From Myxococcales bacterium (lineage in GTDB: Bacteria; Myxococcota_A; Polyangia; Polyangiales; Ga0077539), in the NCBI GenBank assembly GCA_030652255.1, contig JAUSAZ010000012.1:81049-145048 (forward strand): DNA of 64,000 nt, given 5' to 3'. The position numbers and the translations under genes are program-made. Positions 965 through 64,000 of the stretch are shown in pieces. The notes beneath the pieces were generated by a model. The model was not told the origin of the DNA and did no database searches. It worked only from the letters and a program-made list of their open reading frames with translations. How positions within the stretch are numbered: position 1 is the first letter of the stretch; each line of letters begins with the position of its first letter.

Positions 965-1243
965 CCCATAGGCGCCAGGATAGGGGCGCAACCCGCTGTG
1001 GGACCGGGGTTTGGGCGTTGCCCCTACACCCCGGGCAAGCGATGGCGAGCGCCCCTCCGGGGCTTTCGGACCGACACTCGATGGACCTTCCGGAGAGACG
1101 AATCGGCCGTCTGGAAGGCCGATGAATTTCCTGTTCGACAGCCCGCGGAGCGGGCGCCTGCCTTCGCTTGCCCCGGGGTGTAGGGGCAACGCCCAAACCC
1201 CGGTCCCACAGCGGGTTGCGCTTCTATCCTGGCGCCTATGGGG
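965..1243. repeat. REPIN-like inverted-repeat doublet, same REP family as the RAYT flanks
   Basis: The left arm starts at 965 (cccataggcgccaggata...) and is the near-perfect reverse complement of the right arm ending at 1243 (...tatcctggcgcctatggg). About 75 nt match with 2 substitutions and 1 indel, then the arms become looser. They enclose about 80 nt that forms its own hairpin (ccttcc...ggaagg). The arms share 'gaccggggtt', 'caccccgggcaagcga' and 'gcgcccc' with the repeats flanking the RAYT gene at 3410-4076. Confidence 0.8.
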
Positions 1244-4980: not shown

Positions 4981-7782
4981 CTACAGGAAGTCGACCGCCA
5001 TCGTCTGCGACGGCGCGGCGCAGGTGGCCGAGTTGACCCCGCCCCAGTTGGAGCCCTGGCACGGGCGCACGATGTACCCGGTGGGGCAGTTGGACGGGCT
5101 GCAGGTCGCGGGCGGGTCGATCCACAGCTCGCCGTTGTAGCGGCTGCCGCAGAGCGACCAGACGCGGCCGTCGCAGCTCATGCTGAAGTTGGTCCCGGTG
5201 CGCAGCGCCGTCGCGAGCCCGTTGACCACCACGGGGTTGGTGCACGAGATGCCCGTGGGGTTGAAGGTCCCGCGGATGGTCACCCGCGAGTAGGTCGTCC
5301 CGAGGCCCGCGCGCCAGGTGTTCCAGTCCGTGCACGCCGAGGGGGGCGGGTCGACGTTGGTCACGAACGACCCGCTGTACGTGCGCGCGCCGCTCGCGCA
5401 CACGCCCGCCGTGCACACGCCGCTCGCGCAGCGGTTGCCGCAGGCGCCGCAGTTCGAGGCGCTCGTGCGCAGGTCGACCTCGCAGCCGTTGGCCGCGCTG
5501 CCGTCGCAGTTGCCGAAGCCCGCGTTGCAGGCCGCCACGGCGCACGTGCCCGCAGCGCAGGCCGCGGTGCCGTTGGCCACGACGCAGCGGTTGCCGCACG
5601 CGCCGCAGTGGCTGACGTTCGTGGCGCTGTTGACCTCGCAGCCGTCGCCACCCGTGCCGTTGCAGTCGCGGAAGGCGCCCGTGCACGCCGCGATGGAGCA
5701 CGCCCCGCCCACGCAGGCCGCGGTGGCGTTGACGAAGCTGCACGCCCGGCCGCACGAGCCGCAGTTGGCGACGTCCGAGGCGATGCCCGCCTCGCAGCCG
5801 TTGCCCGCGGCGGCGTCGCAGTCGCGGAAGCCCGCGTTGCAGGCGTAGTTGCACGCGCCCGACGCGCACACCGCCGCGGCGTTGGGCCGCGCGGCGCAGC
5901 GCAGGCCGCAGGCGCTGCAGTTGTTGGGGTCGGTCTGCGTGCTGGTGCACGCGCCGCTGCACTCGGTCTGCCCCGCCGCGCAGCTCGCCCGGCACGCCCC
6001 GCCGGAGCACACCTGCCCCGCCGCGCAGCGCACCCCGCAGCCGCCGCAGGCCGCCGGGTCGGTCTGGGTGTTGGTCTCGCAGCCGTTGGCCGCGTCGCCG
6101 TCGCAGTTGACGAAGCCCGCGGCGCAGGCGCCGATCGCGCAGCGCCCCGCGGTGCACGCCGCCGCGGCGTTGGCGAAGCGGCACTGGAGCCCGCACGCGC
6201 CGCAGTTGGTGAGCGAGTTGAGCGCCGTCTCGCAGCCGTTGCCCGCGTTGCCGTCGCAGTCGCCGAAGCCCGCGTTGCACGCGTAGCCGCAGCGCCCCGC
6301 GCAGAACACCGTCGCGTTGGCCGGCCGCGCGCAGCGGTTGCCGCAGCTGGTGCAGTTGTCCGGGTCGTTGGCCACGTTGCGGCACGCGCCCGCGCAGTCC
6401 GTGAGCCCCGCGCCGCAGTTGGGCTGGCACGCCCCCGCGACGCAGCCCTCGCCCGCCGCGCAGCGCACCCCGCACGCGCCGCAGTTGGCGCCGTCGGTGC
6501 GGGTGTTGGTCTCGCAGCCGTCCACGTCCATGGCGTTGCAGTTGTCGAAGCCCGCCGCGCAGGCCCCGCGCGCGCAGCCCGAGCTCGTGCAGCTCGCGCC
6601 CGCGTTGGGGTACCGGCACGCCACGCCGCAGCCGCCGCAGTTGGCGACGTCGTCGAGCGCGGCCTCGCAGCCGTTGCTCGCGTCCCCGTCGCAGTCGCCG
6701 AAGCCGCGGGCGCACTCCACCCCGCAGCGCCCCGCCGTGCAGAACGCCGCGCCGTTGGCCGGCGCCGGGCACACCGTCCCGCAGGCGCCGCAGCCCGCCG
6801 GGTCGGTCTGGAGGTTGCGGCACGCGCCCGAGCAGTTGCTCAATCCGCCGCCGCAGGTCGCGACGCACGCACCCATCGAGCACACCTCGCCCTCCGCGCA
6901 GGCGAGCCCGCAGAGGCCGCAGTTGGCCCGGTCGGTCTGCAGGTCGCGGCACACGCCCGAGCACTCCGTCGTGCCGGCGCCGCAGCTCACCTGGCAGGCC
7001 CCGCGCACGCACACCTCGCCGGCGGCGCACGCCGTCCCGCACGCGCCGCAGTGGGCGCGGTCGCCCTGGAGGTCGCGGCACACGCCCGCGCACTCGGTGG
7101 TCCCGGTCGCGCACGACGCCCCGCACAGGCCCATCGAGCAGAGCTGGCCCGCGTCGCACGCCCGGCCGCAGGCGCCGCAGTTGGCGCGGTCGTTCTGGAG
7201 GTCACGGCACGCGTCGCCGCACGCCGTCGTGCCGCCGCCGCAGGTGGTCACGCAGGCCCCCGCCGCGCAGATCTGCCCGGGTCCGCAGGCCACGCCGCAC
7301 GCGCCGCAGTTGTCCCGGTCGGTGCGGGTGTTGGCGCAGTAGCGCGCCGCGCCCGCCCCCGCGTCGCCGCCGCCGGCGCACTGCGCGAGCATCGGGCCGC
7401 ACTCCAGGGCGCACTGGCCCATGGCGCACACCAGCCCGGCGGAGCACGCCGCGCCGCAGGCGCCGCAGTGGGCGCGGTCGGTGTCCGTCGAGACGCAGCG
7501 GTCGCCGCAGAGCACCTGCCCCGCGGGGCACGAGGGGCGGCACTGCCCCGCCGCGCAGACCTGCGTGCGCGGGCACGCCGTGCCGCAAGCGCCGCAGTGG
7601 AGGGGGTCGTCGGCGAGGGTGACGCAGGCGCCGCCGCAGGCCACCTGGCCCGCAGCGCAGGTCACGTCCGCGGGGACGTCGAGCCCGCCGCCGTCGACCA
7701 CGGCGGGCGCCGGGTCGCTGGTACAGCCGAAGAGGGTGAGCGCGAACGCGAACCAGAGCAGGTGGCGATGGGAGGTCTGCAT
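4981..7782 (-). CDS. Cys-rich repeat lipoprotein (myxobacterial disulfide-repeat type)
   Basis: Lipoprotein signal 'FAFALTLFGC'. It is followed by more than 20 copies of C-x2-C-G-x-x-C-x(5-8)-C-x2-G-x-C modules (for example 'HCGACGTACPRTQVCAAGQC') and a non-repetitive C-terminal domain of about 170 aa. Confidence 0.85.
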   Translation of the reverse strand: MQTSHRHLLWFAFALTLFGCTSDPAPAVVDGGGLDVPADVTCAAGQVACGGACVTLADDPLHCGACGTACPRTQVCAAGQCRPSCPAGQVLCGDRCVSTDTDRAHCGACGAACSAGLVCAMGQCALECGPMLAQCAGGGDAGAGAARYCANTRTDRDNCGACGVACGPGQICAAGACVTTCGGGTTACGDACRDLQNDRANCGACGRACDAGQLCSMGLCGASCATGTTECAGVCRDLQGDRAHCGACGTACAAGEVCVRGACQVSCGAGTTECSGVCRDLQTDRANCGLCGLACAEGEVCSMGACVATCGGGLSNCSGACRNLQTDPAGCGACGTVCPAPANGAAFCTAGRCGVECARGFGDCDGDASNGCEAALDDVANCGGCGVACRYPNAGASCTSSGCARGACAAGFDNCNAMDVDGCETNTRTDGANCGACGVRCAAGEGCVAGACQPNCGAGLTDCAGACRNVANDPDNCTSCGNRCARPANATVFCAGRCGYACNAGFGDCDGNAGNGCETALNSLTNCGACGLQCRFANAAAACTAGRCAIGACAAGFVNCDGDAANGCETNTQTDPAACGGCGVRCAAGQVCSGGACRASCAAGQTECSGACTSTQTDPNNCSACGLRCAARPNAAAVCASGACNYACNAGFRDCDAAAGNGCEAGIASDVANCGSCGRACSFVNATAACVGGACSIAACTGAFRDCNGTGGDGCEVNSATNVSHCGACGNRCVVANGTAACAAGTCAVAACNAGFGNCDGSAANGCEVDLRTSASNCGACGNRCASGVCTAGVCASGARTYSGSFVTNVDPPPSACTDWNTWRAGLGTTYSRVTIRGTFNPTGISCTNPVVVNGLATALRTGTNFSMSCDGRVWSLCGSRYNGELWIDPPATCSPSNCPTGYIVRPCQGSNWGGVNSATCAAPSQTMAVDFL

Positions 7783-7845: not shown

Positions 7846-10071
7846 TCAGTGCCCGCCGTGGTTGAGCCGGCGCTGGATGCGCTGGATGAACGCGGGGGCC
7901 CACCAGTTCCAGTCGCCGAGGAGGCGCATGGTGGCGGGCACCACGAGGATGCGCACGATGGTCGCGTCGAGGGCGACCGCGAGCGCCATGCCCACGCCCA
8001 TGGCCTTCAAGAGGATGACGTCGGCCATGGCGAAGGCCGCGAACACCGCCACCATGATGGCCGCGGCGCTGGTGACGAGGCGCCCGGAGCGCTCGAGGCC
8101 CTCGGCCACGGCCCGGGTGTTGTCCCCGTGCCGGGCGTACTCCTCCTGCATCCGGGTGAGCATCAGCACCTCGTAGTCCATCGAGAGCCCGAAGGTGGCG
8201 CAGAACATCAGGATGGGCAGCGACGGGTCGATGGGGCCGGGCGTGAAGCGCAGCACGCCCGCGAGGTGGCCCTTCTGAAAGATCCAGATGAGCGCGCCGA
8301 AGGAGCCGGTGATGGACAGGAGGTTCATCAGCACGGCCTTGATGGGCAGGGCCACGCTCCCGAGCAGCGCGAGCAGCACCAGCATGGTCATCACGACCAC
8401 GAAGCCCAGCGCCGGGCCCACCCGAGCGCGCAGGTAGGCCGCGGTGTCGAGGTCCATGGCGCTCTGGCCCGTCACGAGCAGCTCGCCGTCGGCCACGCGC
8501 CGCTGCGAGCGCACCGCGCGCACGATGGAGCGCGCCGCCTCCGAGGCGGGCGCGGCCTCGGTGAGGGCCGAGAGCACCACGACGTTGGGCCCGACGGTGT
8601 CGCGCACGAAGAGCTGGTGCCCCTCGGTGTGCTGCCCGGGGTCCATCAGCACGTCGGCGAGGGCGTCGGGCTCCAGCGTCGGGTCGAGGTCGACGACGCT
8701 CTCCACCCGCTCGACCCCCGGGATCGCCGCCACCCGCGCGCTCAGCGCCCGCAGCGCGAGCACCCGATCGCGGCGCTGGAGGGGTCCGCCGGGGAAGCGC
8801 GCCACCATCACCACCCGGGTCGCCGCGCGCTCGGTGAAGTGCTCCACGAGGAGCCCGTGGCCCCGGCGGGTCTCGGTGCTCGCGGGCAGCACGCCCATGT
8901 CGGGGATGGCGACCTTCATGTCGAGGAAGGGCCGCCCGAGCACGAGCAGCAGGGTCAGCGTGGGGAGCAGCACCAGCAGCGGGCGGCGCATCACCCAGGT
9001 CGCGTGGCGGTGCCAGAACCCGCCGCTGTGGGTCTTCGCCCCGCCGCCGATGCGCCAGCGGTTGACGTTGGGCCCCAGCACCGAGAGCAGGGCGGGGAGG
9101 AAGGTGAGCGCGTAGAGGGCCGCGAAGGTGACCACCAGGGTGCCGCCGAGGCCGAGGGACACGAGGTACGAGCCGCGGAAGAAGAAGAGCCCGGAGAGCC
9201 CGATGACGACGGCGAGGCCCGAGAAGGCCACGGCGCGCCCGGCGGTGGCGACGGTGCGGGCGACGGCGTCCTCGACGGAGAGCCCCGCCGCGAGCTCCTC
9301 GCGGAAGCGGTTGACCATGAAGAGCGAGTAGTCGATGGCCACGCCGAGGCCGACCAGCGAGACGATGTTGATCGCGTACTGCGCGACCTCCATGCGCCAC
9401 GAGAGCAGCATCACCGCCGCGACGCCCGCGGCCACCGCGAGCGCGCCGATGCCCGCCGGGAGCAGCGCCGCGACCACCGAGCCGAACACCGCGAGCAGCA
9501 CCACGAGGGTGAGCGGCGCGGAGAGCAGTTCGGCGCGCTGGAGGTCGCGCTCGAGCACGGCGTCGAGGTCGGCGCGGAAGGCCCCGAGGCCGGTGACGGT
9601 GACCGTGAGCGGCCCCCCAACGATGCGCCGCCGGAGGGCGGGGTAGCCGCGGGTGTCGACGGTCGCGGCGTGGCGCAGGGCGACCGTGGCGATGGCGTGG
9701 TGCGTGTCGAGGGACTGCATCGTGGAGGCCTCGACGGCGGAGACGTCCTCGTCGAAGGGCGAGCGCACGCGGAGCACCGACGGGTCGCGGCGCAGGGGCG
9801 CGAGCGCGCGCAGGGCGGCCTCCTGGAAGCGCGGCTCGTCGGTGGTCCACTCGGCGTGGCTGAGGACGATGGTGAGGCCCGAGGCGCCCGCCTGCGGGAG
9901 CTCGCGGTCGATGAGCTCGGCGGCGGTGTCGGCCTCGATGCCGTGGATGCGCCCGGACGTGAGCCGGCCCCCGACGAGCAGCGACGCCAGCGAGGCCAGC
10001 AGGAAGGCCGCGCTCACCGCGAGCACGGCGCGGCGGTGCGCGAAGACCCATCGACCCCAGGCAGCGAACAT
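7846..10071 (-). CDS. MMPL/RND-superfamily transporter
   Basis: 741 aa. Two homologous halves, each a large loop followed by a cluster of about 5 TM helices (for example 'GLGVAIDYSLFMVNRFREE' and 'TFGLSMDYEVLMLTRMQEE'), as is typical of MMPL proteins. Confidence 0.85.
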   Translation of the reverse strand: MFAAWGRWVFAHRRAVLAVSAAFLLASLASLLVGGRLTSGRIHGIEADTAAELIDRELPQAGASGLTIVLSHAEWTTDEPRFQEAALRALAPLRRDPSVLRVRSPFDEDVSAVEASTMQSLDTHHAIATVALRHAATVDTRGYPALRRRIVGGPLTVTVTGLGAFRADLDAVLERDLQRAELLSAPLTLVVLLAVFGSVVAALLPAGIGALAVAAGVAAVMLLSWRMEVAQYAINIVSLVGLGVAIDYSLFMVNRFREELAAGLSVEDAVARTVATAGRAVAFSGLAVVIGLSGLFFFRGSYLVSLGLGGTLVVTFAALYALTFLPALLSVLGPNVNRWRIGGGAKTHSGGFWHRHATWVMRRPLLVLLPTLTLLLVLGRPFLDMKVAIPDMGVLPASTETRRGHGLLVEHFTERAATRVVMVARFPGGPLQRRDRVLALRALSARVAAIPGVERVESVVDLDPTLEPDALADVLMDPGQHTEGHQLFVRDTVGPNVVVLSALTEAAPASEAARSIVRAVRSQRRVADGELLVTGQSAMDLDTAAYLRARVGPALGFVVVMTMLVLLALLGSVALPIKAVLMNLLSITGSFGALIWIFQKGHLAGVLRFTPGPIDPSLPILMFCATFGLSMDYEVLMLTRMQEEYARHGDNTRAVAEGLERSGRLVTSAAAIMVAVFAAFAMADVILLKAMGVGMALAVALDATIVRILVVPATMRLLGDWNWWAPAFIQRIQRRLNHGGH

Positions 10072-12235: not shown

Positions 12236-12558
12236 ATGGTGGGTATCTCGACCATGCACGAGGAAGACGCGCCCTGGCAAGTGGGGGACGCGCCGCGTCA
12301 TACGCCGTGGCCAAATAGGGAAAGGCGATGATCCTGCTGGGATCATCGCCCTTCGAAGGTGTCCGTACCGCGTGGACCGTGGGACCGTAGCGAACCCCTT
12401 GGACACGCCAAGGTGGGAGTCGGGTATCGCGATTTAAGGCTTCCCGGTGAAAGGTCCGGGCCTGCACACCACCACGAGGTTGACCCCCGGATTCGTGTAG
12501 ATAAAGCGGGATTCTATACGCATCCAGCACCTGTCCGGCAGAGGGACGAACCCACCAT
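12236..12558. ncRNA. Candidate structured RNA or long 5' leader (unclassified)
   Basis: No protein-like ORF in any frame. G+C is locally depressed (33/60 in 12481-12540 and 37/60 in 12421-12480, counted by hand). A 9-bp long-range pairing joins atggtgggt (12236-12244) and acccaccat (12550-12558). Several perfect local hairpins are present (ggcgatgatcc/ggatcatcgcc at 12324-12350, ccttgg/ccaagg at 12397-12413, cccgg/ccggg at 12443-12460). Class and strand are not determined. Confidence 0.25.
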
Positions 12559-52234: not shown

Positions 52235-52387
52235 CGGCGCCCCCCGCAGACAACATTCATCCCCCGCACCGACGCTCGAGGGGGTACTCCGCTGCGACGG
52301 GGACGACGACCACATCCGCCTTTGCGCATTCCCGAAGGCGGGTGCGTCAGCCGTGATCGTCGTCCCGGTCGCAGCGCCCCCCTCCGC

Positions 52388-52981
52388 TCAACCCTCGTCG
52401 CGCTCGGCCACGGGCTTCCACCCGTGGCTGCGAAGGAAGCTCCGCACCTTCCCGAAGCGCTCCATGCACACGAACACCGGCGCGTACTGCTCGGTGAGCC
52501 GCACCCGCACATCCGCGCCGTCGCAGACCAACACGATGCGCGCCACGTCGAGGTCGCCGCTCAGCTCGGTGGTGGGCACCGCGTCGCCGTAGCCCTGGTG
52601 GTACGACACCCGCTGGATGGCCTTGCGCTCGATCTCCACGTCGCGCACCTCGGACAGCGCCACCACCACGGGCGCCGCCTCGCCCGCGCGCTGGACGGCG
52701 AGCGACCCGCCGGCCACGTCGAGCGTGAAGCCCGGCGCGACCTCCTGCCGCCGCCGGAACCACCAGTACCCGCCGCCCGCCGCGGCGCACGCGCCCGCCG
52801 CGTGGGGTGACACCGCGGCCACCGCCCCGACCCCCAGCGCCGCCGCGAGGAAGCCGTAGTACCCGCGGAGGAAGGCCTTCCACTTCGAGCGCTCGGCGTC
52901 GCTCCAGGCGACCACGAGCTGCGGGGCGGGCGCGCGCTCCTCGACCTCGATGGGCGCGCGGTAGGGGGTGTCCTTCGGCAT
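52388..52981 (-). CDS. Hypothetical membrane protein
   Basis: 197 aa. One or two central TM segments (YYGFLAAALGVGAVAAV) followed by a beta-rich C-terminal domain. No family recognised. Confidence 0.5.
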   Translation of the reverse strand: MPKDTPYRAPIEVEERAPAPQLVVAWSDAERSKWKAFLRGYYGFLAAALGVGAVAAVSPHAAGACAAAGGGYWWFRRRQEVAPGFTLDVAGGSLAVQRAGEAAPVVVALSEVRDVEIERKAIQRVSYHQGYGDAVPTTELSGDLDVARIVLVCDGADVRVRLTEQYAPVFVCMERFGKVRSFLRSHGWKPVAERDEG

Positions 52982-53005
52982 CGCCAGGCTCCTGCGGGGT
53001 GCGGG

Positions 53006-53797
53006 TCAGTCGTTGAGGGAGGTGCGCTCGACGCGGCGCTCCCGGCGCCGGCGGGTGACCGTGACGGCGCTCTCGATGAGGCCGAAGGCGAGGTAGCACC
53101 CGAGCAGCCACGGGAGCGCGAAGGCCGGGCCCAGCCGCGCGCCCACGAGCACGGTGCTGGAGACCCCCGCGGCGATGACCGCGAGCGGGCGCCACCCGGT
53201 GAGCCGCACGTCCTTGAAGGATCGGAAGTGCACCGTGCTGACCATCAGCGTCGAGAGCACCACCATGAGCAGGGCCACGGCGGAGGGGTGCGCGAAGAGC
53301 CGAGCCCCGACGGAGTGGTTGGCGAGCACGAGCGCGATGAGCATCCCCGCGGCGCCGGGGATGGGCAGGCCGACGATGTACTTGCCGGGCTTCGTGGTGG
53401 CGCCGGCCTCGCGGATGGCGATGACGTTGAAGCGCGCGAGGCGGATGGCGCCGCAGGCCACGTAGAGGAAGCACGCCGCGACGCCGAGGTCGCCGAGCGG
53501 CGCTAGGGACCAGCGCCACGCGAGCAGCGCCGGGGCGACGCCGAAGGAGATCACGTCGGCGAGGGAGTCGAACTGGAGCCCGAACGCGGACTGGGTGCGG
53601 GTGAGCCGGGCCACGCGGCCGTCGATGATGTCGAAGAACATCGCGAACACCAGCAGCAGCGCGGCGGCCTGGTAGCGCGCCGGGTCGACCGCCGGGGACC
53701 CCGCCGTCGAGAGCAGCCGGATGGCGTTGAAGCCACAGAAGATGCTCGAGACGGTGAAGAGGTTGGGGAGGATGAAGAGGCTCTTGCGGAGGTCCAT
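53006..53797 (-). CDS. pssA: CDP-diacylglycerol--serine O-phosphatidyltransferase
   Basis: CDP-alcohol phosphatidyltransferase motif 'DIIDGRVARLTRTQSAFGLQFDSLADVISFG'. Polytopic, 263 aa. Confidence 0.9.
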   Translation of the reverse strand: MDLRKSLFILPNLFTVSSIFCGFNAIRLLSTAGSPAVDPARYQAAALLLVFAMFFDIIDGRVARLTRTQSAFGLQFDSLADVISFGVAPALLAWRWSLAPLGDLGVAACFLYVACGAIRLARFNVIAIREAGATTKPGKYIVGLPIPGAAGMLIALVLANHSVGARLFAHPSAVALLMVVLSTLMVSTVHFRSFKDVRLTGWRPLAVIAAGVSSTVLVGARLGPAFALPWLLGCYLAFGLIESAVTVTRRRRERRVERTSLND

Positions 53798-53966
53798 GGC
53801 TTCGCGGGAGGCGTAGCATCGGACGGGGCCGGAGGTCGAAGTCGCGACCAGAGCGACGCACCGGGGGAGCGTGCGTAGCGCGCGACGCAGGCGCGATCAT
53901 TCTACGCGGTGATTGCAGTGTATTTCGCGCGTCGAGATCGCGTGACCCCCGCCGCCGCGCCGGGCT

Positions 53967-55805
53967 ATGTCCGCGTCCATGTCGCTGCAAGCCACCCCCG
54001 CGCCCGCGCCGCAGAGAGCGCGCGCCTCGAGCAAGCCCCACGAGTTCGTCGCCATCGAGGCGCCCCCGGCGGAGCAGCGCCGGGCGCGCGCGGCGACCTT
54101 CGCCCCGGCGGGCGAGAAGCGCACCCGGCACCACCTGCCCGAGCGCCTCGACTCGGCGTCGCCGGTGGGCTACCGCACCCGCGTCTCGCTCACCCGCGAC
54201 GAGGCCGCGACGATGCTCTCCGTGCTCGCGCTTCCGCGGCCCACGGGCTTCGTGCCGGGCCCTGCGCCGCGGGAGTCCGAGCTCTTCGAGGAGTGCTCGC
54301 TCGGGGTGCTCACCGCGCGCCAGTCGACCAACTTCCAGGGACACCGCGACGTGCTGCTGGGCTCCGACGACTCGGCCCGCGCCGCGGCCCTGCTGCGCCG
54401 CATCGGCACCCACGGCGTGCCGGTGCTCGACGGCGCGGCGTACACCCACCTGGTGCTCGCGCGGCCGTACCGCACGGCCTTCACGCTGCTGCTGACCTTC
54501 GTCGGGCACAAGACCCTCGCGAGCCTCGCGACGGTGCCGATGCGCGCGTGGGCCAAGCGCTTCCGCCACGCCGACGACATCCCGACCATCGGGTACCTCA
54601 CCGAGCTGCACCTGGGCGTGCTCGCCGACGCGATGGAGCGCGCCGCGGTCGTGGCGTCGGCGGGGCAGCGGCGGGCGCAGGTGTTCCTCCGGCCGATGGA
54701 CGCGCCGGACGACCCCGCGGCGCTGCGCGAGCTGGAGGCCCTCGCGGGACTCGGCCCGAAGGAGCGGGCCCAGGGCTGGCGCATCGGCCTCGTGGCGCAG
54801 GTGGGGTACGCGCGACCGGGAGAGGGCGTGGCCATCGCGCCCGCGTCGGCGCGGCGCCTGGGCGCGGCGCTGCTGGCCCTGCGCAGCGAGCGCATCCAGC
54901 CGGGGGTCAACGCCGACGAGGGCGCCCCCGCGGCCTACCAGGCCCGGCAGGACATGAACGTCTCCGACGCGCTCGCCGAGCAGGCGGGCCGCGCGGCCTA
55001 CAACGCCTTCGCGCACTTCACCGGCGTCGAGCGCGACCGGGCGCGCGAGCTGCTTCTGCTGGAGCGCATCGACGTGCTTACCCCGGACGGTAAAGACCGG
55101 CTCCGGGCGGTGCGCGAGCAGCTGGCGGAGGTCACCGACCGGGTGGTGCGGGAGATCCCGCTGTGGGCCGACCTGCCCATCGGGCGGGCGCTGAGCCGCA
55201 ACGCCGCCCGCGGGCGCAAGGCCTTCGCGCTCGCGGGGCAGCGCATCTACGTGGGCGGGCTCTCGCGCCGGGACGTGGAGTCGGCGGGGCTGCCCTTCGG
55301 CTTCGCGGTGCGGGCCTTCGGTGCGGCGGCGGCGCGCAGCGCGCTGGTGGCGGAGGTGTCGGGGACGACGGAGGTCCCGGCGGGGTGCGACCTGCTCGCG
55401 GGCGTGTGCCTCATGGCGGGCCCGGTGAACCAGAACGACATCGGCAAGCAGTTTCACGGCGCGCCCGACCTGCTCGCGGAGGCCTTCCCCGACCGCGACC
55501 CGACGAGCCTCCTGGTCTGGACCCTCAAGGCCAAGACCGTCGCCGACCCCATCGGCAACGAGCAGCAGCTCCTCGACGCCGCGCGCCAGGGCGCCCTCGT
55601 CGACCTTCGCCCGGGGCCCCACGAGGTGGTCTCGCTGCGCCGGGGGGTGAGCCTCGCGCCGATGCGATCGCGCGACGGCCGCGTCAACGCCGAGCGGGCC
55701 TTCGGCGACGTGGGCAACTTCGTCACGGCGCCCGACGGCCGGGAGATCGCGGGCAACCGCGGCTCGGCCTGGCCCGCGGCCTGGTCGAAGGAGGTGCCCT
55801 GGTGA
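53967..55805 (+). CDS. Hypothetical protein (612 aa), no recognisable domain
   Basis: Long ORF with balanced composition. Its stop overlaps the GTG of the downstream MaoC-like gene (GTGA). The opposite-strand 1091-aa ORF is R/G/A/P shadow. Confidence 0.55.
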   Translation: MSASMSLQATPAPAPQRARASSKPHEFVAIEAPPAEQRRARAATFAPAGEKRTRHHLPERLDSASPVGYRTRVSLTRDEAATMLSVLALPRPTGFVPGPAPRESELFEECSLGVLTARQSTNFQGHRDVLLGSDDSARAAALLRRIGTHGVPVLDGAAYTHLVLARPYRTAFTLLLTFVGHKTLASLATVPMRAWAKRFRHADDIPTIGYLTELHLGVLADAMERAAVVASAGQRRAQVFLRPMDAPDDPAALRELEALAGLGPKERAQGWRIGLVAQVGYARPGEGVAIAPASARRLGAALLALRSERIQPGVNADEGAPAAYQARQDMNVSDALAEQAGRAAYNAFAHFTGVERDRARELLLLERIDVLTPDGKDRLRAVREQLAEVTDRVVREIPLWADLPIGRALSRNAARGRKAFALAGQRIYVGGLSRRDVESAGLPFGFAVRAFGAAAARSALVAEVSGTTEVPAGCDLLAGVCLMAGPVNQNDIGKQFHGAPDLLAEAFPDRDPTSLLVWTLKAKTVADPIGNEQQLLDAARQGALVDLRPGPHEVVSLRRGVSLAPMRSRDGRVNAERAFGDVGNFVTAPDGREIAGNRGSAWPAAWSKEVPW

Positions 55806-56674
55806 GCGGCGCGGGCTTCCCCTCGCTGCTGCTGGCCCACGCGAAGCTGCTGGCCGCGCGGCGGCCGGGCCTCCGCCCGGGCGCGACGCTCCCGCGGCTG
55901 GAGCGCAGCGCCCGCGGGGTGGTGGCGGACCCGTCGTGGCTCGCGCGCTACCGCCGGGTTTGCGGCCTCGCCGACGACGGCGCGCTCCCGACGCTGGCGC
56001 CGCAGCTCATGGCCGCGCCGCTGCACCTCGCGCTGCTGGCCGACCGGGAGTTCCCCATCGCGGCGATGGGGATCGTGCACGTCGCCAACCGCACCGAGGA
56101 GCGCACCCGCCTCCCCGCGGGCGCTGCGCTCGACCTGGTTGCGCGCGTCGCCGGGAGCCGCGAGGCCGCGCTCGGGGTGGAGTTCGACCTGGTGACCGAG
56201 GCCACCCTCGAGGGCGCGATCGTGTGGCGCACCACGACGACGGCGCTGGCCCGCCGACGCGGGGAGAAGGGCGGCGCGCGCTCGAAGCGCGAAGAGACCG
56301 CGGCGGGCGTCGAGGGCGGGGCGCTGCGCTCGGCGATCGTGCGGGTGGCGGAGGACACCGGTCGCCGCTACGCGCGCATCGCGGGCGACCTCAACCCCAT
56401 CCACCAGCGGGCCTGGATGGCGCGGCCCTTCGGGTTTCGCACGGCCATCGTGCACGGCACCTGGACGGTCGCGCGCGCCCTCGCGGAGTGCGCGGACGAC
56501 CTCCCTGCGTGGCCGCGGGTGGCGGAGGTGCGCTTCCGCAAGCCGGTTCCGCTGCCGTCGTCGGTGGTGGTGTCGGCGTGGAGGCGCGATGACGGCGCGC
56601 TGGACATCACCGTGAGCCCGCCGAAGGGCGGCACGGCCCACGTGGAGATCCGCGTGGCGCCGCTCCGGGCCTAG
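55802..56674 (+). CDS. MaoC-like (double hot-dog) dehydratase
   Basis: C-terminal hydratase motif 'YARIAGDLNPIHQRAWMARPFGFRTAIVHG', plus an N-terminal degenerate hot-dog half. This is the 3' part of ORF 55163..56674. Confidence 0.75.
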   Translation: MSGAGFPSLLLAHAKLLAARRPGLRPGATLPRLERSARGVVADPSWLARYRRVCGLADDGALPTLAPQLMAAPLHLALLADREFPIAAMGIVHVANRTEERTRLPAGAALDLVARVAGSREAALGVEFDLVTEATLEGAIVWRTTTTALARRRGEKGGARSKREETAAGVEGGALRSAIVRVAEDTGRRYARIAGDLNPIHQRAWMARPFGFRTAIVHGTWTVARALAECADDLPAWPRVAEVRFRKPVPLPSSVVVSAWRRDDGALDITVSPPKGGTAHVEIRVAPLRA

Positions 56675-56884
56675 CGCCGCGTCCCAGAGAATGGGACCGG
56701 TCGGGCTGAGCACCCGCCCACGCCTGCGAGCACCGGCCTCGCCCTCCGAGGGGAGCACCCGCCCACGCCTGCGGTCACCGTCCTCGCCGATCGAGGGGAG
56801 CACCCGCCCGCGCCCTCGGTCACCGTCCTCGCCGATCGAGGGGAGCACCCGCCCGCGCCTGCGAGCACCGGCCTCACCTTCGCG

Positions 56885-57009
56885 CTGATGGTTGACCTCA
56901 TCTCGGCCGAAGCGAAAGTGGCGCAAACCGCTGGATCGCTGGGGTTCCGCGCGATGGCGCGTCACCCCAGGCAATAACAGGATGGACGCCCCGGGCACTG
57001 CCCGGGGCT
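56885..57009. repeat. Left arm of the perfect 125-bp inverted repeat
   Basis: I checked it block by block: it is the exact reverse complement of 57122-57246. The inner tip is itself a hairpin (ccccgggcaCtgcccgggg). Confidence 0.95.
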
Positions 57010-57121
57010 GCGGTCGGACGTCGCTTGCGCACCACAGAGCGACGCCCATCGGCGTGACAACGCCTCTGTTTCCGGACCGCATCGTGTCCCGATCGGCCTG
57101 ATGCCAGCGGCGGCCGTTCGG

Positions 57122-57246
57122 AGCCCCGGGCAGTGCCCGGGGCGTCCATCCTGTTATTGCCTGGGGTGACGCGCCATCGCGCGGAACCCCAGCGATCCAG
57201 CGGTTTGCGCCACTTTCGCTTCGGCCGAGATGAGGTCAACCATCAG
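57122..57246. repeat. Right arm of the perfect 125-bp inverted repeat
   Basis: Exact reverse complement of 56885-57009. This explains the two mirrored ORFs in the track that share 'MTSSRPKRKWRKPLDRWGSARWRVTPGNNRMDAPGTARG'. Confidence 0.95.
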
Positions 57247-57418
57247 ACCTTCGCGGGAGTGAGGTGCCGGTGGCTGAGGGCATGGGCGGGCGCTCCCCTC
57301 GATCGGCGAGGACGGTGCTCGCAGGCGTGGGCGGATGCTCCCCTCGATCGGCGAGGACGGTGACCGAGGGCGTGGGCGGGTGCTCTGCTCAACCCGTCAG
57401 AACTCCTGCGGGGAGGCC

Positions 57419-59077
<1,659 letters not shown>

Positions 59078-59155
59078 CGTTGCCACAGACGTAGGGCCGC
59101 GGCCGAACATTCGCCACCTGCCGCCTGGAGGGCGCGGCACCCATGTTCTCCCCTA

Positions 59156-60004
59156 ATGCCTCCGCCGCACCTCCCCGCCCTGCTCGCGCTCGCGCTCTCG
59201 CTGGGCTGCGACGCCCTGTTCGCGCAGACGCTTGGCCCCGCTCCGTGGCGCGGCCCGGTCGCCGCGCTCATGGCCCGCCGCGGAGCCCCGCTGGCGGTGC
59301 CGGGCTTCGGCGACGCGGTGGTGGTCGCGCCCGACAGCGGCGAGGCGCGCGTCGTGGTGGTCGCCGCGCACGGCAACTACGACCGCCCGGAGTGGCAGTG
59401 CGACGTGTGGCGCACCCTCGTCGCGGGGCGCGCGTGGATCCTCTGCCCCCGCGGCGTGGCGCGGCGCGACTCGCCCTCGGCCGACGACGTGCGCTTCACC
59501 TACGCGTCGCAGGCGGCGCTCAACCGCGAGGTGGCCGCGGGCCTCGCGGCGCTGCGCCTCGCCCACGGCGCGCGCGTCGCCGGCAGGCCCATCGTGTACG
59601 CGGGCTTCTCGCTGGGCGCCATCCTCGGGGTGGGCTACCTCCGCAGCACCACCGAGCCGGTGGCCGCGGCGGTGCTGGTCGAGGGCGGGCACTCGGCGTG
59701 GTCCGTCGAGGTGGCGCGCGGCTTCGGGCGACGCGGCGGCGGGGCCGTGCTCTTCGCCTGCGGGCAGGCGGGGTGCGCGCGCGACGCCCGGCGGGTGCAG
59801 CCCCGGCTCCAGGCGGCCGGGGTCGCCGCGGACGTGGCGCTGGCGCGCGGCGCGGGCCACTCGTACGGCGGCGCGGTGGCCGAGGCGATGCGCCCGGCCT
59901 TCGAGCGGCTCATCGCCCCGGCGCTCAGCCCGAGCGCAGCAGCGCCTCGGCCCGCTGCGCCCGGCGCGCGCGCTGCGCCACCGTCGCCCGCGCCACGCCC
60001 TTGA
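59156..60004 (+). CDS. Alpha/beta-hydrolase-like lipoprotein
   Basis: Lipobox 'LALALSLGC' and nucleophile elbow 'YAGFSLGAILG'. This is the 3' part of ORF 57335..60004. The 3' end is uncertain: the Pro/Ala tail overlaps convergent gmk by 80 nt. Confidence 0.6.
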   Translation: MPPPHLPALLALALSLGCDALFAQTLGPAPWRGPVAALMARRGAPLAVPGFGDAVVVAPDSGEARVVVVAAHGNYDRPEWQCDVWRTLVAGRAWILCPRGVARRDSPSADDVRFTYASQAALNREVAAGLAALRLAHGARVAGRPIVYAGFSLGAILGVGYLRSTTEPVAAAVLVEGGHSAWSVEVARGFGRRGGGAVLFACGQAGCARDARRVQPRLQAAGVAADVALARGAGHSYGGAVAEAMRPAFERLIAPALSPSAAAPRPAAPGARAAPPSPAPRP

Positions 60005-60533
60005 GCTCCTCGATGGCCGTCGCGAGGTCGTCGTTGATGATCAGGTAGTCGAAGAGCCCGTACATCGCGACCTCGTCGCGGGCGTTCTTCAGGCGCCGCT
60101 GGATGACCTCCTCGCGCTCGGTCCCTCTGCCCCGCAGGCGCTGCTCCAGCACCTCCCACGAGGGCGGCAGCACGAACACCGCCACCGCGTCGGGGATGGC
60201 CGCCTTCACCTGCCGCGCGCCCTGCACGTCGATGACGAACACCACCCCGCGGTGGGTCTCCCGGGCGAGCCGCACCCGCGACATCGACGTGCCGTAGCGG
60301 TGCCCGTGCACCTCGGCCCACTCGCAGAGGTCGCCCTCGGCCACCATCTCGTCGAAGCGCGCGTGCTCGACGAAGTGGTAGTCGCGCCCGTCGACCTCCC
60401 CCGGCCGGGGCGCCCGCGTGGTGTTCGACACGCTCTGCACCAGCTGGGGAAAGGCCTCCAGCAGCGCGCGCACCATCGTCGTCTTCCCCGCGCCCGACGG
60501 GGACGTGACGATCAGGTGGAGAAAGCCGTCCAT
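59925..60533 (-). CDS. gmk: Guanylate kinase
   Basis: P-loop 'VTSPSGAGKTT' and 'SVSNTTRAPRPGEVDGRDYHFV'. Confidence 0.93.
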   Translation of the reverse strand: MDGFLHLIVTSPSGAGKTTMVRALLEAFPQLVQSVSNTTRAPRPGEVDGRDYHFVEHARFDEMVAEGDLCEWAEVHGHRYGTSMSRVRLARETHRGVVFVIDVQGARQVKAAIPDAVAVFVLPPSWEVLEQRLRGRGTEREEVIQRRLKNARDEVAMYGLFDYLIINDDLATAIEELKGVARATVAQRARRAQRAEALLRSG

Positions 60534-60537
60534 CCGC

Positions 60538-61404
60538 TCACTCGACGTTCTGCGCCTGCTCGCGCATGCGCTCCAGGTCTGCCTTGAGGGCCACCACCCC
60601 GGTGGTCACCGCCGCGTCCGTCGCCTTCGCGCCCAGCGTGTTGGCCTCCCGCGCCATCTCCTGGAGCAGGAAGTCCATCCGCCGCCCGACGGCGCCCTCC
60701 TGCGCCAGCAGCGACCCCATCGCGTCGGCGTGCGCCCGCAGCCGCGTGAGCTCCTCGCTCACGTCCGAGCGCTCGCTCCACAGCACCAGCTCCTGCGTCA
60801 GCCGAGCCTCGTCGAGGCTGAGCTCGCCGAGGGCGCCCAGCACCCGCTGCCGGGCCCGCTGCCGCAGCCGCGCGGTCATCCCCGCGGCCTGCGCCGACAC
60901 CGCCTCCACGGCCTCGCTCACCGCCGCCAGCAGCGCCGCCAGCGCCACCCGCAGGTGACGCCCCTCCGCCGCGCGGCTCTCCTCGAAGCGCGCCACCGCC
61001 GTCGCCAGCGCGGCCTCCAGGGCCTCGCGCGCCGCCGCCGGCTCGTGCCCGCCGGAGCCCGTGAAGAGCTCGGGCATCGCGCCCAGCACCCCCAGCGGGA
61101 CCCGCTCGGTGTAGCCCAGCGCGTCGGCCATGCGCTGCATCGAGGCCAGCACCGCGCGCGCCCGCTCCTCGTCGAAGCCGTGGCCGCTCGCGAGCGCCCC
61201 CTCGAGGTGGCCGCTCACGTCCACCCTCCCCCGCGAGAGCTGCGCGCGCACCCGCTGCTCCAGGAAGACGCCGTGATCGGCGAGCTCGCGCGGGAGCCGC
61301 ACCCGCACCTCCAGGTAGCGGTGGTTCACCGAGCGCAGCTCCAGCGAGAGCCTGAGCCCCCCGAGGTGCGCCTCGCCCGCGCCGAAGCCCGTCATGCTCC
61401 GCAC
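60538..61404 (-). CDS. yicC: YicC-family stress-induced protein
   Basis: 'MRSMTGFG...SVNHRYLEVRVRLP' at the N-terminus and 'REANTLGAK' (DUF1732) at the C-terminus. Confidence 0.88.
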   Translation of the reverse strand: MRSMTGFGAGEAHLGGLRLSLELRSVNHRYLEVRVRLPRELADHGVFLEQRVRAQLSRGRVDVSGHLEGALASGHGFDEERARAVLASMQRMADALGYTERVPLGVLGAMPELFTGSGGHEPAAAREALEAALATAVARFEESRAAEGRHLRVALAALLAAVSEAVEAVSAQAAGMTARLRQRARQRVLGALGELSLDEARLTQELVLWSERSDVSEELTRLRAHADAMGSLLAQEGAVGRRMDFLLQEMAREANTLGAKATDAAVTTGVVALKADLERMREQAQNVE

Positions 61405-61422
61405 GGGTGCGCCGCCTCTCCG

Positions 61423-62361
61423 CTACGCGCCGACGGGGTTCGCGCGGTACCAGTCGATGGCCCTCTTCAGGCCCGCCCGCAGGTCGTACAGCACCTCGTA
61501 GCCGAGGAGCTTCTGCGCCGCGGAGATGTCCGCGAGGGAGTCGCGCACGTCGCCCGCGCGGCCCGCCTGGTACTCGGGCTTCACGTCGGTGCCGAGCTCC
61601 TCGTTGATGAGCGCGATGAGCGCGTTGAGGGACACCCGCGCGCCGCAGGCCACGTTGACCACCTCGCCCCGGGTGGTGGCCTTCGCCGCCAGGAGGTTGG
61701 CGCTCACGGTGTTGTCGATGAAGCAGAAGTCCCGCGTCTGCTCGCCGTCGCCGAAGATGATCGGCCGACCGCCGTTGAGGATGGTCGTCACGAAGCGGGG
61801 GATCACCGCGGCGTACTCGCTCTTCGGGTCCTGCCGCGGGCCGAAGACGTTGAAGTACCGCAGCGAGACGGTCTCGAAGCCGTACAGCTTGCCGAACACC
61901 GACACGTACTGCTCGCCCGCCAGCTTGCTGATGGCGTAGGGGCTCATCGGCCGCGGGGTCATCGTCTCGACCTTCGGGAGCGTCGGCGTGTCGCCGTAGG
62001 CGCTCGAGCTCGCGGCGTAGACCAGCTTGCGCACGCCCGCGAGGCGGGCGGCGTTGAGCACCGACACCGTGCCGCCCACGTTCGCCTGGTTGCTCGCCAC
62101 CGGGTCGGCCACGCTGCGCGACACGCTCGGGATGGCCGCCTCGTGGAACACCAGCTCGACCCCGTGCACCGCCCGCGCGATGGCCTCCGGGTCGCAGATG
62201 TCGGCCTCGATGAAGTCGACCCGGTTGCGCACGCGGTCGATGTTCTCCCGCTTGCCCGTCGACAGGTTGTCGATGACCCGCACCTCGGCGTTCTGCGCGA
62301 GCAGCGCGTCGATGATGTGCCCGCCGATGAAGCCCGCTCCCCCCGTCACCAGGACCTTCAC
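61423..62361 (-). CDS. NAD-dependent sugar-nucleotide epimerase/dehydratase (extended SDR)
   Basis: 'MKVLVTGGAGFIGGH' Rossmann motif and catalytic 'SPYAISKLAGE' (YxxxK). 312 aa. Confidence 0.88.
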   Translation of the reverse strand: MKVLVTGGAGFIGGHIIDALLAQNAEVRVIDNLSTGKRENIDRVRNRVDFIEADICDPEAIARAVHGVELVFHEAAIPSVSRSVADPVASNQANVGGTVSVLNAARLAGVRKLVYAASSSAYGDTPTLPKVETMTPRPMSPYAISKLAGEQYVSVFGKLYGFETVSLRYFNVFGPRQDPKSEYAAVIPRFVTTILNGGRPIIFGDGEQTRDFCFIDNTVSANLLAAKATTRGEVVNVACGARVSLNALIALINEELGTDVKPEYQAGRAGDVRDSLADISAAQKLLGYEVLYDLRAGLKRAIDWYRANPVGA

Positions 62362-62374
62362 GCGATCGCCCCCT

Positions 62375-62689
62375 TCACTTCTTGGGCGCGAAGAGCGCCG
62401 CCAGCTTCGACTTGGCCTTGAGCTCGCCCTCGTTGCTGCCGGGCTCGCCGTTCTTGAACGTGAAGAACGAACAGAAGTTCGCCGCCTCGCGGTCGGGGAT
62501 GTACTCGGTGATCTTCTCGCGGCACTGGTTGTGCGCGCTCACGTCCCAGAACTCGCAGTTCTTGCAGCACTGGAGGTCGGCGCCGCAGTGCGGGCACTGG
62601 TCGCGCCGGCCCATCTTCACCTCGAAGACCAGCTCGTTCTTGCACTTGTGGCAGAAGTGCTTCTTCTCTTCGACCTTCGGGATCCACAT
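62375..62689 (-). CDS. Small Cys-rich zinc-ribbon protein
   Basis: 104 aa with 'CHKCK...CPHCGADLQCCKNCEF'. G+C is lower and Lys content higher than in neighbouring genes, as expected for a conserved core gene. Confidence 0.65.
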   Translation of the reverse strand: MWIPKVEEKKHFCHKCKNELVFEVKMGRRDQCPHCGADLQCCKNCEFWDVSAHNQCREKITEYIPDREAANFCSFFTFKNGEPGSNEGELKAKSKLAALFAPKK

Positions 62690-62711
62690 GGCTGGGTTGT
62701 AGCCCTTCGCT

Positions 62712-63224
62712 TCAGGTGATGCCGCGACGGCGCTTCACCTGCTCCGTCACGCGTTGGTACTCGACCTCCCAGGTGCGGGTGCCCTCCTGGAAGTTCTTGA
62801 TCTGGTCGCGAACCTCGCGGTCGAGCTCCTCGTCGGCGGCCATGTGGCGCTCGAGCACCTTCTTGGCCTTGCGACGGATGACGTCGTCCTCGGAGAACAC
62901 CTCGTCGACGTGCGGCGAGCGCATGAGCATCACGATGATCTGGTTGAGGATGAACGAGATCGCATCCCCCCCGAGGCCGATGTTCTTCGCCTCGGCCATG
63001 GTCTTCTTGACCCGGGCGATGTCTTCCCGCCCGCCGCCCACCTGCTCGACCCGGTCTTTGGCCTTCTCGGTGAGGTCGCGCTCCATGCGCAGGTACTCGC
63101 GCAGCACGGCCTCGATGTCGGCCTCGACCTCGCGCGCGCTGGTCACCTCGATGTCCTTGTCGGCGGTGAGCACCCGCACGATGTCCATCGCGATGACCGG
63201 TACCTTGCTGGAATAGAGCTTCAT
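62712..63224 (-). CDS. DUF507-family protein
   Basis: Start at the internal ATG at 63224: 'MKLYSSKVPVIAMDIVRVLTADKDIEV...'. The charged helical protein resembles DUF507. Confidence 0.65.
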   Translation of the reverse strand: MKLYSSKVPVIAMDIVRVLTADKDIEVTSAREVEADIEAVLREYLRMERDLTEKAKDRVEQVGGGREDIARVKKTMAEAKNIGLGGDAISFILNQIIVMLMRSPHVDEVFSEDDVIRRKAKKVLERHMAADEELDREVRDQIKNFQEGTRTWEVEYQRVTEQVKRRRGIT

Positions 63225-63294
63225 GCAGCCGAAATCGTATGCCCCGCGGCCCCGCCGGGTGTCAACGCACGAGTGCACCCTCCCGGCCGACGGG

Positions 63295-63954
63295 TCACGG
63301 ATTCACCGCCGCCCCGGTGCCGAGCGCCGCCACCCGCTGCCGCAGCCGCCGGAGCAGCTCCGGGAAGCCCCGGTCGCGCACGATGCGGGTGTACCCGTCG
63401 CGGTACGACTGCACCAGCGACGAGCGGTTGGTCACGATGTCGTAGACGATCCAGTCGTTGGCCCGGCGGCGCAGGTGGTAGTCGATGGTCACCGGCTCGG
63501 TGCGGGTGTTGGTGCGCGACCGCGCCGTGGTGGGCACGACCACGGTCCCGTCGGCCGCCGTCGTGCCGGCGCCGTAGGTCACCGCCCAGCTGAGCGTGGA
63601 CTCCAGGTTGTTGCGGTAGTTGCGCTCGATGAGCTGCCGGAGCAGCGAGACGAAGGCCGCCTGGTCGGCCGCGGACTGCTGCCCGAAGTAGGGGTCGAGC
63701 GCGCGGCGGCCGAGCTCTTCGATGTCGAGCATGCCGTTGAGGATGCGCGCCACCTGGGCGTCGCGCGCCGCCGTGGCCGCGCCCGCGTCGCCGCTCTGGG
63801 CGAGCAGCCGGGTCACCGCGCCGAGGCGCCCCTCGACCCACCGCCGCGGGTCGGGGCCCGCGGGGCCCGGCTGCGCCAGCGCCGGAGCGGTCGCCAGCGA
63901 CGCCGCGGCCGCGAGCAGGAGAGCGCTGAAACCACGTCGATCAAGGATCATCAT
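63295..63954 (-). CDS. MlaC/Ttg2D-like phospholipid-binding periplasmic protein
   Basis: Signal peptide 'ALLLAAAASLATAPALAQ'. 'LDIEELGRRALDPYF...FVSLLRQLIERNYRN' and 'WIVYDIVTNRSSLVQSYRDGY' are typical of the toluene-tolerance Ttg2D family. Confidence 0.75.
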   Translation of the reverse strand: MMILDRRGFSALLLAAAASLATAPALAQPGPAGPDPRRWVEGRLGAVTRLLAQSGDAGAATAARDAQVARILNGMLDIEELGRRALDPYFGQQSAADQAAFVSLLRQLIERNYRNNLESTLSWAVTYGAGTTAADGTVVVPTTARSRTNTRTEPVTIDYHLRRRANDWIVYDIVTNRSSLVQSYRDGYTRIVRDRGFPELLRRLRQRVAALGTGAAVNP

Positions 63955-64000
63955 CGGCTTGTACCTCCGAACGCCATCGTGTCCACAGACGTGCTCGGGT

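Follow-up and report, generated by a model that had tools for sequence, protein, structure and literature searches.

What has produced the long palindrome between two convergent genes of a Myxococcales bacterium, and are its nested parts of one origin? The locus occupies positions 56690-57405 of a 64,000-nt stretch of genomic DNA (assembly GCA_030652255.1, contig JAUSAZ010000012.1, positions 81,049-145,048 of the forward strand), which is referred to here, at its full length, as the window. At its centre lies a 362-bp unit (56885-57246) with two inverted arms. With a probability of roughly 0.7, this unit is an inverted doublet, without a transposase gene, that is formed by the end repeats of an IS200-like Y1 element and has come to lie within an older local palindrome. 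Since the arms copy a repeat that flanks Y1 transposase genes, the unit would be a gene-less, REPIN-like relic or passenger of such an element, and since the core appears to keep an 11-codon relic, it is read as a doublet without its transposase. An earlier note on this DNA had listed a foldback-type non-autonomous mobile element and a compound cluster like repetitive extragenic palindromic (REP) sequences among the candidates. That was the right area, since the repeat family of the arms goes together with a transposase.

Arms, core and the repeats beside Y1 genes

The 362-bp unit comprises the following parts (L numbers denote loci fetched for comparison):

56885-57028 (+): left arm, matching the right arm exactly over 56885-57009; its inner extension, 57010-57028, is diverged and of the L028/L031 type
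57029-57102: non-palindromic centre of the core; the transposase gene has this position in intact relatives
57045-57077 (-): candidate relic of a transposase C-terminus, 11 codons, VRKQRRCHADG against the family motif VRDQPRHHADG (8 of 11)
57103-57246 (-): right arm, matching the left arm exactly over 57122-57246; its inner extension, 57103-57121, is diverged and of the L026 type

The outer parts of the arms, 56885-57009 and 57122-57246, are exact reverse complements at 125 of 125 positions. A repeat search carries the inverted repeat inward to 144 nt at 96% (56885-57028/57103-57246), the extra 19 nt being complementary at only 13 of 19 positions.

The arms have relatives beside transposase genes. 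A scan of JGI metagenomes with a 22-mer from the arm yields two relevant contigs, L022 and L023, each with a 113-nt stretch that is 91% identical to the arm and lies 55 nt upstream of an open reading frame (ORF) starting MSSTYARLYVHLVWATKGREP. This ORF is the N-terminal half of a Y1_Tnp/IS200-like transposase. Intact 140-aa Y1 genes stand between inverted repeats in L026/L027 (146 nt, 91% complementary) and in L028 (137 nt, 90% complementary), and in L031, from another NCBI metagenome-assembled genome (MAG), repeats of ~170 nt enclose a frameshifted gene in the same way. The flanking repeats of L026, L028 and L031 and the L023 stretch are 89-93% identical to the window arm; together they are called family B here. 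The homology to these four loci spans about the inner 95-113 nt of each arm, and by eye the outermost ~30 nt have only a short string in common, with L031. In every Y1-flanking case the G+C-rich hairpin GCCCCGGGC...GCCCGGGGC is gene-proximal, and both arms of the window point inward, to the place that a gene would occupy. The arrangement in these related uncultured Myxococcota, with the module on both sides of a 140-aa HUH/Y1 gene (Y...Q..HH), resembles that of REPtrons and TIRtrons.

The earlier note had described the 112-nt core as unique. It is not simply so, as it holds the transposase relic at 57045-57077 (8 of 11 residues), which is likely but not certain. The tblastn match has an E-value of 0.001-0.002, obtained in a tiny search space. 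Among the 127,936 six-frame eleven-residue windows of the 64 kb, only the relic and the real gene at 3892 reach at least 8 matches of 11.

The inner ends of the arms bear on their history. The left inner extension (GCGGTCGGACGTCGC) is of the subtype found in L028, L031 and L023, and the right one (CCGAACGGCCGCC) is of the subtype of L026. Because the identical outer 125 nt change sharply to extensions of two subtypes, and because the repeats of intact relatives are only 90-91% complementary, the sequences suggest that the arms were recently homogenised. Gene conversion within the hairpin is one possible route.

A cluster look-up gives a truncated family-B transposase, P0116, from a MAG series other than that of the window. 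A scan of viral contigs and a BLAST search of plasmids returned nothing. A 25-nt segment at L024 2451-2475 and L025 7968-7992, identical to the arm at 24 positions (ACCAGGCAATAACAGGATGGACG), was set aside as a chance match although it is long for one; it sits in an unrelated ferredoxin-aminotransferase spacer, on contigs of ~68% G+C. On two unrelated contigs, IS91-type (Y2) transposase genes or fragments adjoin the family-B Y1 element (L023 5221-6180 and L028 3505-4966). All 21 contigs with the Y1 protein P0125 (L034-L043) start 67-106 bp ahead of the gene, which would fit breaks of the assemblies at an upstream repeat; since all 21 show the same context, they give no information on mobility.

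Hairpin modules and sister elements

Each arm carries a module of two hairpins ~17 nt apart:

56939-56970 (+): hairpin 1 of the left module, with CTGGGGT/ACCCCAG as its outer and CGCGC/GCGCG as its inner stem; mirrored at 57161-57192
56970-56974 (+): GGCAA, directly 3' of hairpin 1; it reads TTGCC at 57157-57161 in the right arm
56988-57008 (+): hairpin 2 of the left module, GCCCCGGGC-ACT-GCCCGGGGC; mirrored at 57123-57143

Conservation of both hairpins was examined on 16 modules, which belong to four families and were aligned under the guidance of a model. This alignment replaced a plain MAFFT alignment, on which RNAalifold found hairpin 1 only, because the families were misaligned. Across the modules, hairpin 1 has the outer stem C(T/C)GGGGT/ACCCC(A/G)G and a variable inner stem. 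The helices of both hairpins are 96% paired; that of hairpin 1 shows covariation from T:A to C:G, and that of hairpin 2 has a compensatory G:C to A:T change in L031 as well as changes in families A and C. Compensatory changes are also seen in the raw sequences, where GGGC/GCCC becomes GGAC/GTCC in L031 and the inner stems differ in families A and C. In the alignment, which was fitted to the structure and whose statistics therefore lean towards it, 90% of cells are paired, against 86% in shuffles and 33-55% with slid partners. Compensatory changes are seen at 6 pairs, where shuffles give 1.9 (0 of 500) and slid controls 1-2. GGCAA is near-invariant in the module families compared, including L032, and reads GGCCA in one arm of L029. 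It is proposed as a possible site of recognition or cleavage, corresponding to the 'foot' of REP sequences.

The window itself holds two sister elements, of family A:

965-1242: gene-less family-A doublet, with 71-nt arms (965-1035/1172-1242) that are 97% complementary and a 136-nt spacer
3411-4076 (+): family-A element with an intact 143-aa Y1 gene (3550-3981) between 69-nt inverted repeats (3411-3479 and 4008-4076)

The inverted repeats of the second element match at 97% over their 69 nt. Its gene was met in a tblastn search with a truncated transposase, as a homologue at 3550-3729 with 53% identity. The protein encoded at 3550-3981 scores 73.6 bits with PF01797 and 64.6 bits with NF033573 (IS200/IS605; cutoff 55), and an exact-sequence look-up found no record of the same 143-aa sequence. 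To avoid circularity, a covariance model was built from the family-B arms alone. Besides its own arms, this model matches 992-1076 (E = 8e-6), 1132-1215 (7e-5), 3987-4074 (9e-4) and 3413-3501 (0.05), and has no further match in the 64 kb. These are exactly the four family-A arms, and the link of the palindrome to 965-1243 and 3410-4076, which the earlier note had suspected from short shared strings, is real. Within the 64 kb there are two doublets, one of family B and one of family A, and a single family-A unit with a gene.

A denser arrangement is found in L032, from a Polyangiales MAG (GCA_046351535.1), where four alternating modules (9589-9974) lie directly upstream of a 145-aa Y1 gene. The family-B-only model matches all four (E = 7e-13 to 2e-5). 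They form two tandem doublets of ~192 bp, built from two module variants, in a layout like a small cluster of bacterial interspersed mosaic elements (BIMEs) or REPINs beside its transposase. A partial module at L032 10436-10460 overlaps the 3' end of the Y1 gene.

The 362-nt unit is predicted to form a very stable structure as single-stranded DNA (ssDNA), with -227.5 kcal/mol against -83.6 in shuffles (z = -31.6). Two small hairpins lie in the core, gtcgct/agcgac at 57020-57025/57038-57043 and ggcgt/acgcc at 57051-57064. In another reading, each arm would be a small RNA (sRNA) gene with promoter, RNA and terminator hairpin, and the two arms a convergent identical pair. The G+C content of the arms, 60-68% and thus below the 74.5% of the window, would fit such genes, as would TTGACC at the outer end, the strong hairpin at the inner end, and an RNA fold z-score of ~ -3. 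However, a search for sigma-70-like promoters found none, and no Rfam family matched: with Rfam 15, nothing in 56500-57600 attains a gathering score, and the best E-value in a permissive search, 0.2, is far below thresholds. The module is, moreover, inverted on both sides of transposase genes and also arranged in alternating arrays, which fits a DNA repeat, and a pair of sRNA genes is highly improbable. A search of the region for transfer RNA and transfer-messenger RNA genes found none, and its sole, weak terminator-like site is the core hairpin at 57051-57064. Two further candidates were dropped: a sigma-54 promoter in the arm, whose spacing is wrong by eye, and a small ORF from the ATG in AACAGGATGG, whose ribosome-binding spacing is implausible and whose sequence recurs on both sides of transposase genes. 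Annotators are advised against calling genes or sRNAs in the region.

Three other features of the window were recorded. Between the two family-A elements there is a 43-bp tandem repeat (2254-2403, 3.5 copies, 84% matches), which contains inverted repeats and shows no similarity to the 45-bp unit described below or to other loci. Long tandem repeats with periods of 129-435 nt (5427-7323) are probably coding repeats of a large protein. A 6S RNA (RF00013) is found at 12361-12547 (-), with 51.3 bits against a gathering score of 46.4.

The probable insertion site and its neighbourhood

The surroundings of the 362-bp unit are themselves palindromic:

56690-56707: left-hand outer end of the old palindrome, a mirror of 57386-57405; the same segment occurs at the orthologous L004 site
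56708-56884 (+): left array of four 45-bp units, the last one degenerate, from repeat searches
56876-56884 (+): 9-bp direct repeat ACCTTCGCG, left copy, abutting the left arm; a possible target-site duplication
57247-57255 (+): 9-bp direct repeat ACCTTCGCG, right copy, abutting the right arm
57251-57385 (-): right array of three inverted 45-bp units, the innermost degenerate, from repeat searches
57386-57405: right-hand outer end of the old palindrome, gctcaacccgtcagaactc; in L004 the left end is a mirror image of it

Tandem Repeats Finder reports 3.7 copies of the 45-bp unit on the left (56708-56875, 88% matches) and 2.6 inverted copies on the right (57268-57385, 82% matches), and a repeat search extends the inverted repeats of the old palindrome to 56695 and 57403. 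The head of the unit, GAGCACCCGCCCRCGCC, occurs seven times in the window, always in these arrays, where 0.65 occurrences are expected; the unit is found neither in the rest of the window nor in the other fetched loci. The description given in the earlier note, with perfect 125-bp arms, four outer units on the left and three inverted ones on the right, small core hairpins and a position between convergent genes, is borne out, and the folding that it named as a check gave the very stable ssDNA structure described above. Its view of a single nested element is not. The arrays are not the outer part of one element with the arms, as a related site has the units without the arms and the 9-bp repeat lies between the two.

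That site is L004, the closest relative, with 94-96% nucleotide identity over window positions 52386-56755 and 59914-63999. Missing from it are the arms and the core, together with the kinase gene to the right of the palindrome and, beside that gene, a 266-aa ORF with no Pfam match. In their place, instead of window 56756-59913, it has 284 bp (L004 10958-11241) with a called 80-aa ORF. It keeps one 45-58-bp unit facing an inverted one (10900-10957/10972-11029), and the mirrored units are thus a feature of the site that exists without the arms.

In the window, the doublet interrupts the common centre of both arrays, directly after the degenerate fourth unit on the left. The ACCTTCGCG repeat that brackets it is exactly 9 bp long, with a chance of ~2e-5 from base composition, and identical 9-mers at the spacing of the doublet occur at 3 of 63,600 window positions. 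When the unit and one copy of ACCTTCGCG are removed in silico, the sequence reads ...GGCCTCACCTTCGCGGGAGTGAGG... and both 45-bp arrays form one long hairpin, in which the 9-mer extends from the stem end over most of the loop. The repeat thus has the appearance of a target-site duplication made on insertion into the loop of a hairpin. As the doublet sits in the apical loop of an older palindrome and is bracketed by the 9-bp repeat, insertion is the most likely way in which it, or a parent with the gene, reached this site.

Perfect inverted ends abutted by an exact 9-bp direct repeat are also what a classical miniature inverted-repeat transposable element (MITE), moved by a DDE cut-and-paste transposase, would show. 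The ends (CTGATGGTTGACC...) and the duplication would then be its marks and the resemblance to Y1 flanks secondary. In favour of a DDE enzyme, transposition by Y1 enzymes through IS200/IS605 peel-and-paste is known to leave no target duplication. Against it, the inner 95-113 nt of the arms match the Y1-gene flanks of L023, L026, L028 and L031, none of the loci has a DDE transposase beside the module, and the other module pairs and elements examined lack a direct repeat at their flanks. A DDE-driven MITE is therefore unlikely. A related proposal keeps the Y1 enzyme: the doublet would record a real transposition into an ssDNA hairpin loop with a 9-bp target duplication, made by a route other than peel-and-paste or with a host or second enzyme that cuts in a staggered manner. 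This is an outside chance; if true, an IS200-like subclass reported as repeat-free would mobilise long two-hairpin doublets.

The reading of the unit as a transposase-less Y1 doublet has several observations to its disadvantage. The 9-bp repeat is unexpected, since known Y1 transposition leaves none and the other module pairs have none. The relic is short, and it counts as likely rather than certain because the DNA alignment of the core with intact elements is not significant beyond the arm extensions. The window contains no family-B transposase gene, and an 18-mer from the arm gave 10 chance matches, in unrelated phyla, among the GTDB species representatives. The doublets of L032, with spacers of only ~40 nt, indicate that doublets need not arise by deletion of a gene. 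Mobility, argued from analogy, has been observed for no member of the module family.

The neighbouring genes place the palindrome in a conserved order:

55802-56674 (+): MaoC-like dehydratase, 290 aa, left flank; 100% identical to P0001; PF01575; the stop codon ends at 56674
57419-59077 (-): Ser/Thr protein kinase, 552 aa, right flank; PF00069, 130 bits; the gene is also called in L001

They also bear on whether the palindrome exists. The MaoC protein has two NCBI accessions, from two MAG assemblies. L001 (GCA_030692645.1) differs from the window by 4 mismatches and 1 gap in 14 kb, and is identical to it at 900 of 900 bp across the palindrome. A foldback chimera made by the assembler, a concern raised in the earlier note, could be suspected from the short-read contigs L002 and L003, which end at 56748, within the 45-bp array, although repeats commonly make contigs stop. 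The agreement of two assemblies that differ elsewhere, the unique syntenic genes on both sides and the presence of homologous modules in unrelated samples leave such an artefact next to no weight. The palindrome is real.

In L015 and L021, MaoC is followed by a convergent kinase, the gene order of the window, and the Cys-rich tail of the kinase (CGPCTQGMVERCNGCDDNCNGMVDEGC, window 57419-57500, minus strand) is kept in both. The space after MaoC varies:

L015/L016: MaoC identity 81%; the kinase gene ends 14 bp past the MaoC stop
L021: MaoC identity 85%; 188 bp with an unrelated palindromic element after MaoC
L019: MaoC identity 78%; 72 bp and then a guanylate kinase after MaoC

The element in L021 (GCA_028287085.1, 3098-3285) consists of cctcacccccagcccctctccatgaatggagagggg ... 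and an inverted copy, and palindromic repeats seem to have settled repeatedly in the spacer between MaoC and kinase.

These relatives bear on another explanation, in which the palindrome serves the host as a bidirectional terminator, a stabiliser of messenger RNA 3' ends, or a barrier to replication or supercoiling, and is kept perfect by selection. It occupies the 3'-3' space between MaoC and the kinase, its fold is extremely stable, G+C-rich hairpins lie at the inner ends of the arms, and REP elements are known to be co-opted for such roles (PMC3733652). However, close relatives do without it, with the 14-bp spacer in L015/L016, the unrelated palindrome in L021 and no arms in L004. The arms contain no hairpin with a T run, the terminator-like site at 57051-57064 being the only one, and elsewhere the same module flanks transposase genes. 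Maintenance as a host structure is accordingly quite improbable. The site is structurally variable among close relatives, with loss of the kinase and the 266-aa ORF and changes in array size, and short-read assemblies break there.

Known systems and meaning

The proteins compared have 140-145 aa, consist of the Y1 core only and carry the motifs [DE]H[VA]H, WQ and YVRDQPRHH. They score 70-74 bits with PF01797 (Y1_Tnp), with HVH/HAH and RYV..Q conserved, and 55-75 bits with NF033573 (IS200/IS605; cutoff 55). With NF047646 (REP_Tyr_transpos, RAYT) they fail, at 22-30 bits against a cutoff of 80. Subclass 1.2 of the Y1 transposases has the motifs DH[IV]H, WQ and YIKNQKEHH and a median length of 148 aa (Quentin et al., 2018, PMC6006769, Table 1). 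By comparison of motifs, and with a length of about 140-148 aa, the proteins fit this subclass, for which the survey lists no REP-like flanks and members mainly from cyanobacteria and Bacteroidetes (PMC6006769). Here, in contrast, the genes are from Myxococcota and come with inverted two-hairpin flanks and gene-less doublets.

The doublet has much in common with REPINs (Bertels and Rainey, 2011, PMC3116915): both consist of two inverted, transposase-associated repeats and a spacer, are extragenic, and are predicted to form a single long hairpin. As in the REPIN/RAYT system (PMC3116915), the repeat flanks a single Y1/HUH gene, and compensatory changes keep the pairing. In other organisms (L026, L028 and L031) such a gene is flanked by the family-B repeat, and in the window it has its family-A counterpart at 3411-4076. 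The differences concern size, foot and enzyme. The module has 95-145 nt and two hairpins, whereas a REP is a 20-40-nt palindrome; it has no GT[AG]G foot but the near-invariant GGCAA beside hairpin 1; its protein scores as IS200-like, not as RAYT; and a 9-bp direct repeat flanks the window copy. The doublet would thus work like a REPIN or a MITE of a Y1 element, and since module size, foot sequence and protein class differ, it stands outside the REP/RAYT family proper.

TIRtron repeats are in some cases self-complementary, belong to small families and include gene-less dimers (Di Nocera et al., 2013, PMC3733652). The same paper, together with PMC6006769, describes TIRtrons and REPtrons with a Y1 gene between inverted repeats, as seen in L026, in L028 and at 3411-4076 of the window. 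Gene-less copies are found at window 965-1242 and 56885-57246 and at L032 9589-9974. The GGGGWSAS motif that PMC3733652 gives for many such repeats was not seen by eye, and CTGGGGTTCC is present instead. Most TIRYT proteins belong to class 2.1 and have extra C-terminal domains (PMC6006769). The proteins here differ in having 140-145 aa and the Y1 core alone.

Elements of the IS200/IS605 type have unlike left and right ends with subterminal hairpins and no terminal inverted repeats, and gene-less derivatives (PATE) exist. Common to them and the present elements are the PF01797 transposase family, the HUH motif with a catalytic Tyr, and gene-side hairpins that are likely recognition elements. 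Here, however, the ends are inverted repeats of 69-170 nt, and a 9-bp direct repeat abuts the doublet. The doublet is like a MITE as a short non-coding unit with terminal inverted repeats, a flanking direct repeat and the make-up of an internal-deletion derivative of a gene-bearing parent. Unlike that of a DDE MITE, the parent is a Y1/HUH element, and the inverted repeats of 125-144 bp go far beyond usual insertion sequence ends.

A course of events can be proposed by analogy with IS200/IS605 and REP/RAYT systems. The parent element would have lost its transposase gene, leaving the 11-codon relic and the two end modules. A cognate Y1 transposase acting in trans would bind the folded ssDNA hairpins and cut beside them, GGCAA next to hairpin 1 being the candidate site, and would thereby move or copy the doublet. 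The perfect identity of the arms may reflect a recent origin or strand-internal gene conversion in the hairpin.

Subclass 1.2 was surveyed as lacking repeats (PMC6006769), yet in Myxococcota it is found in REPtron-like units with gene-less doublets. The spread of REP-like repeats is still mostly inferred from genome patterns, and a doublet whose empty site can be reconstructed, which is flanked by a duplication and which a close relative lacks, would be a natural record of one event.

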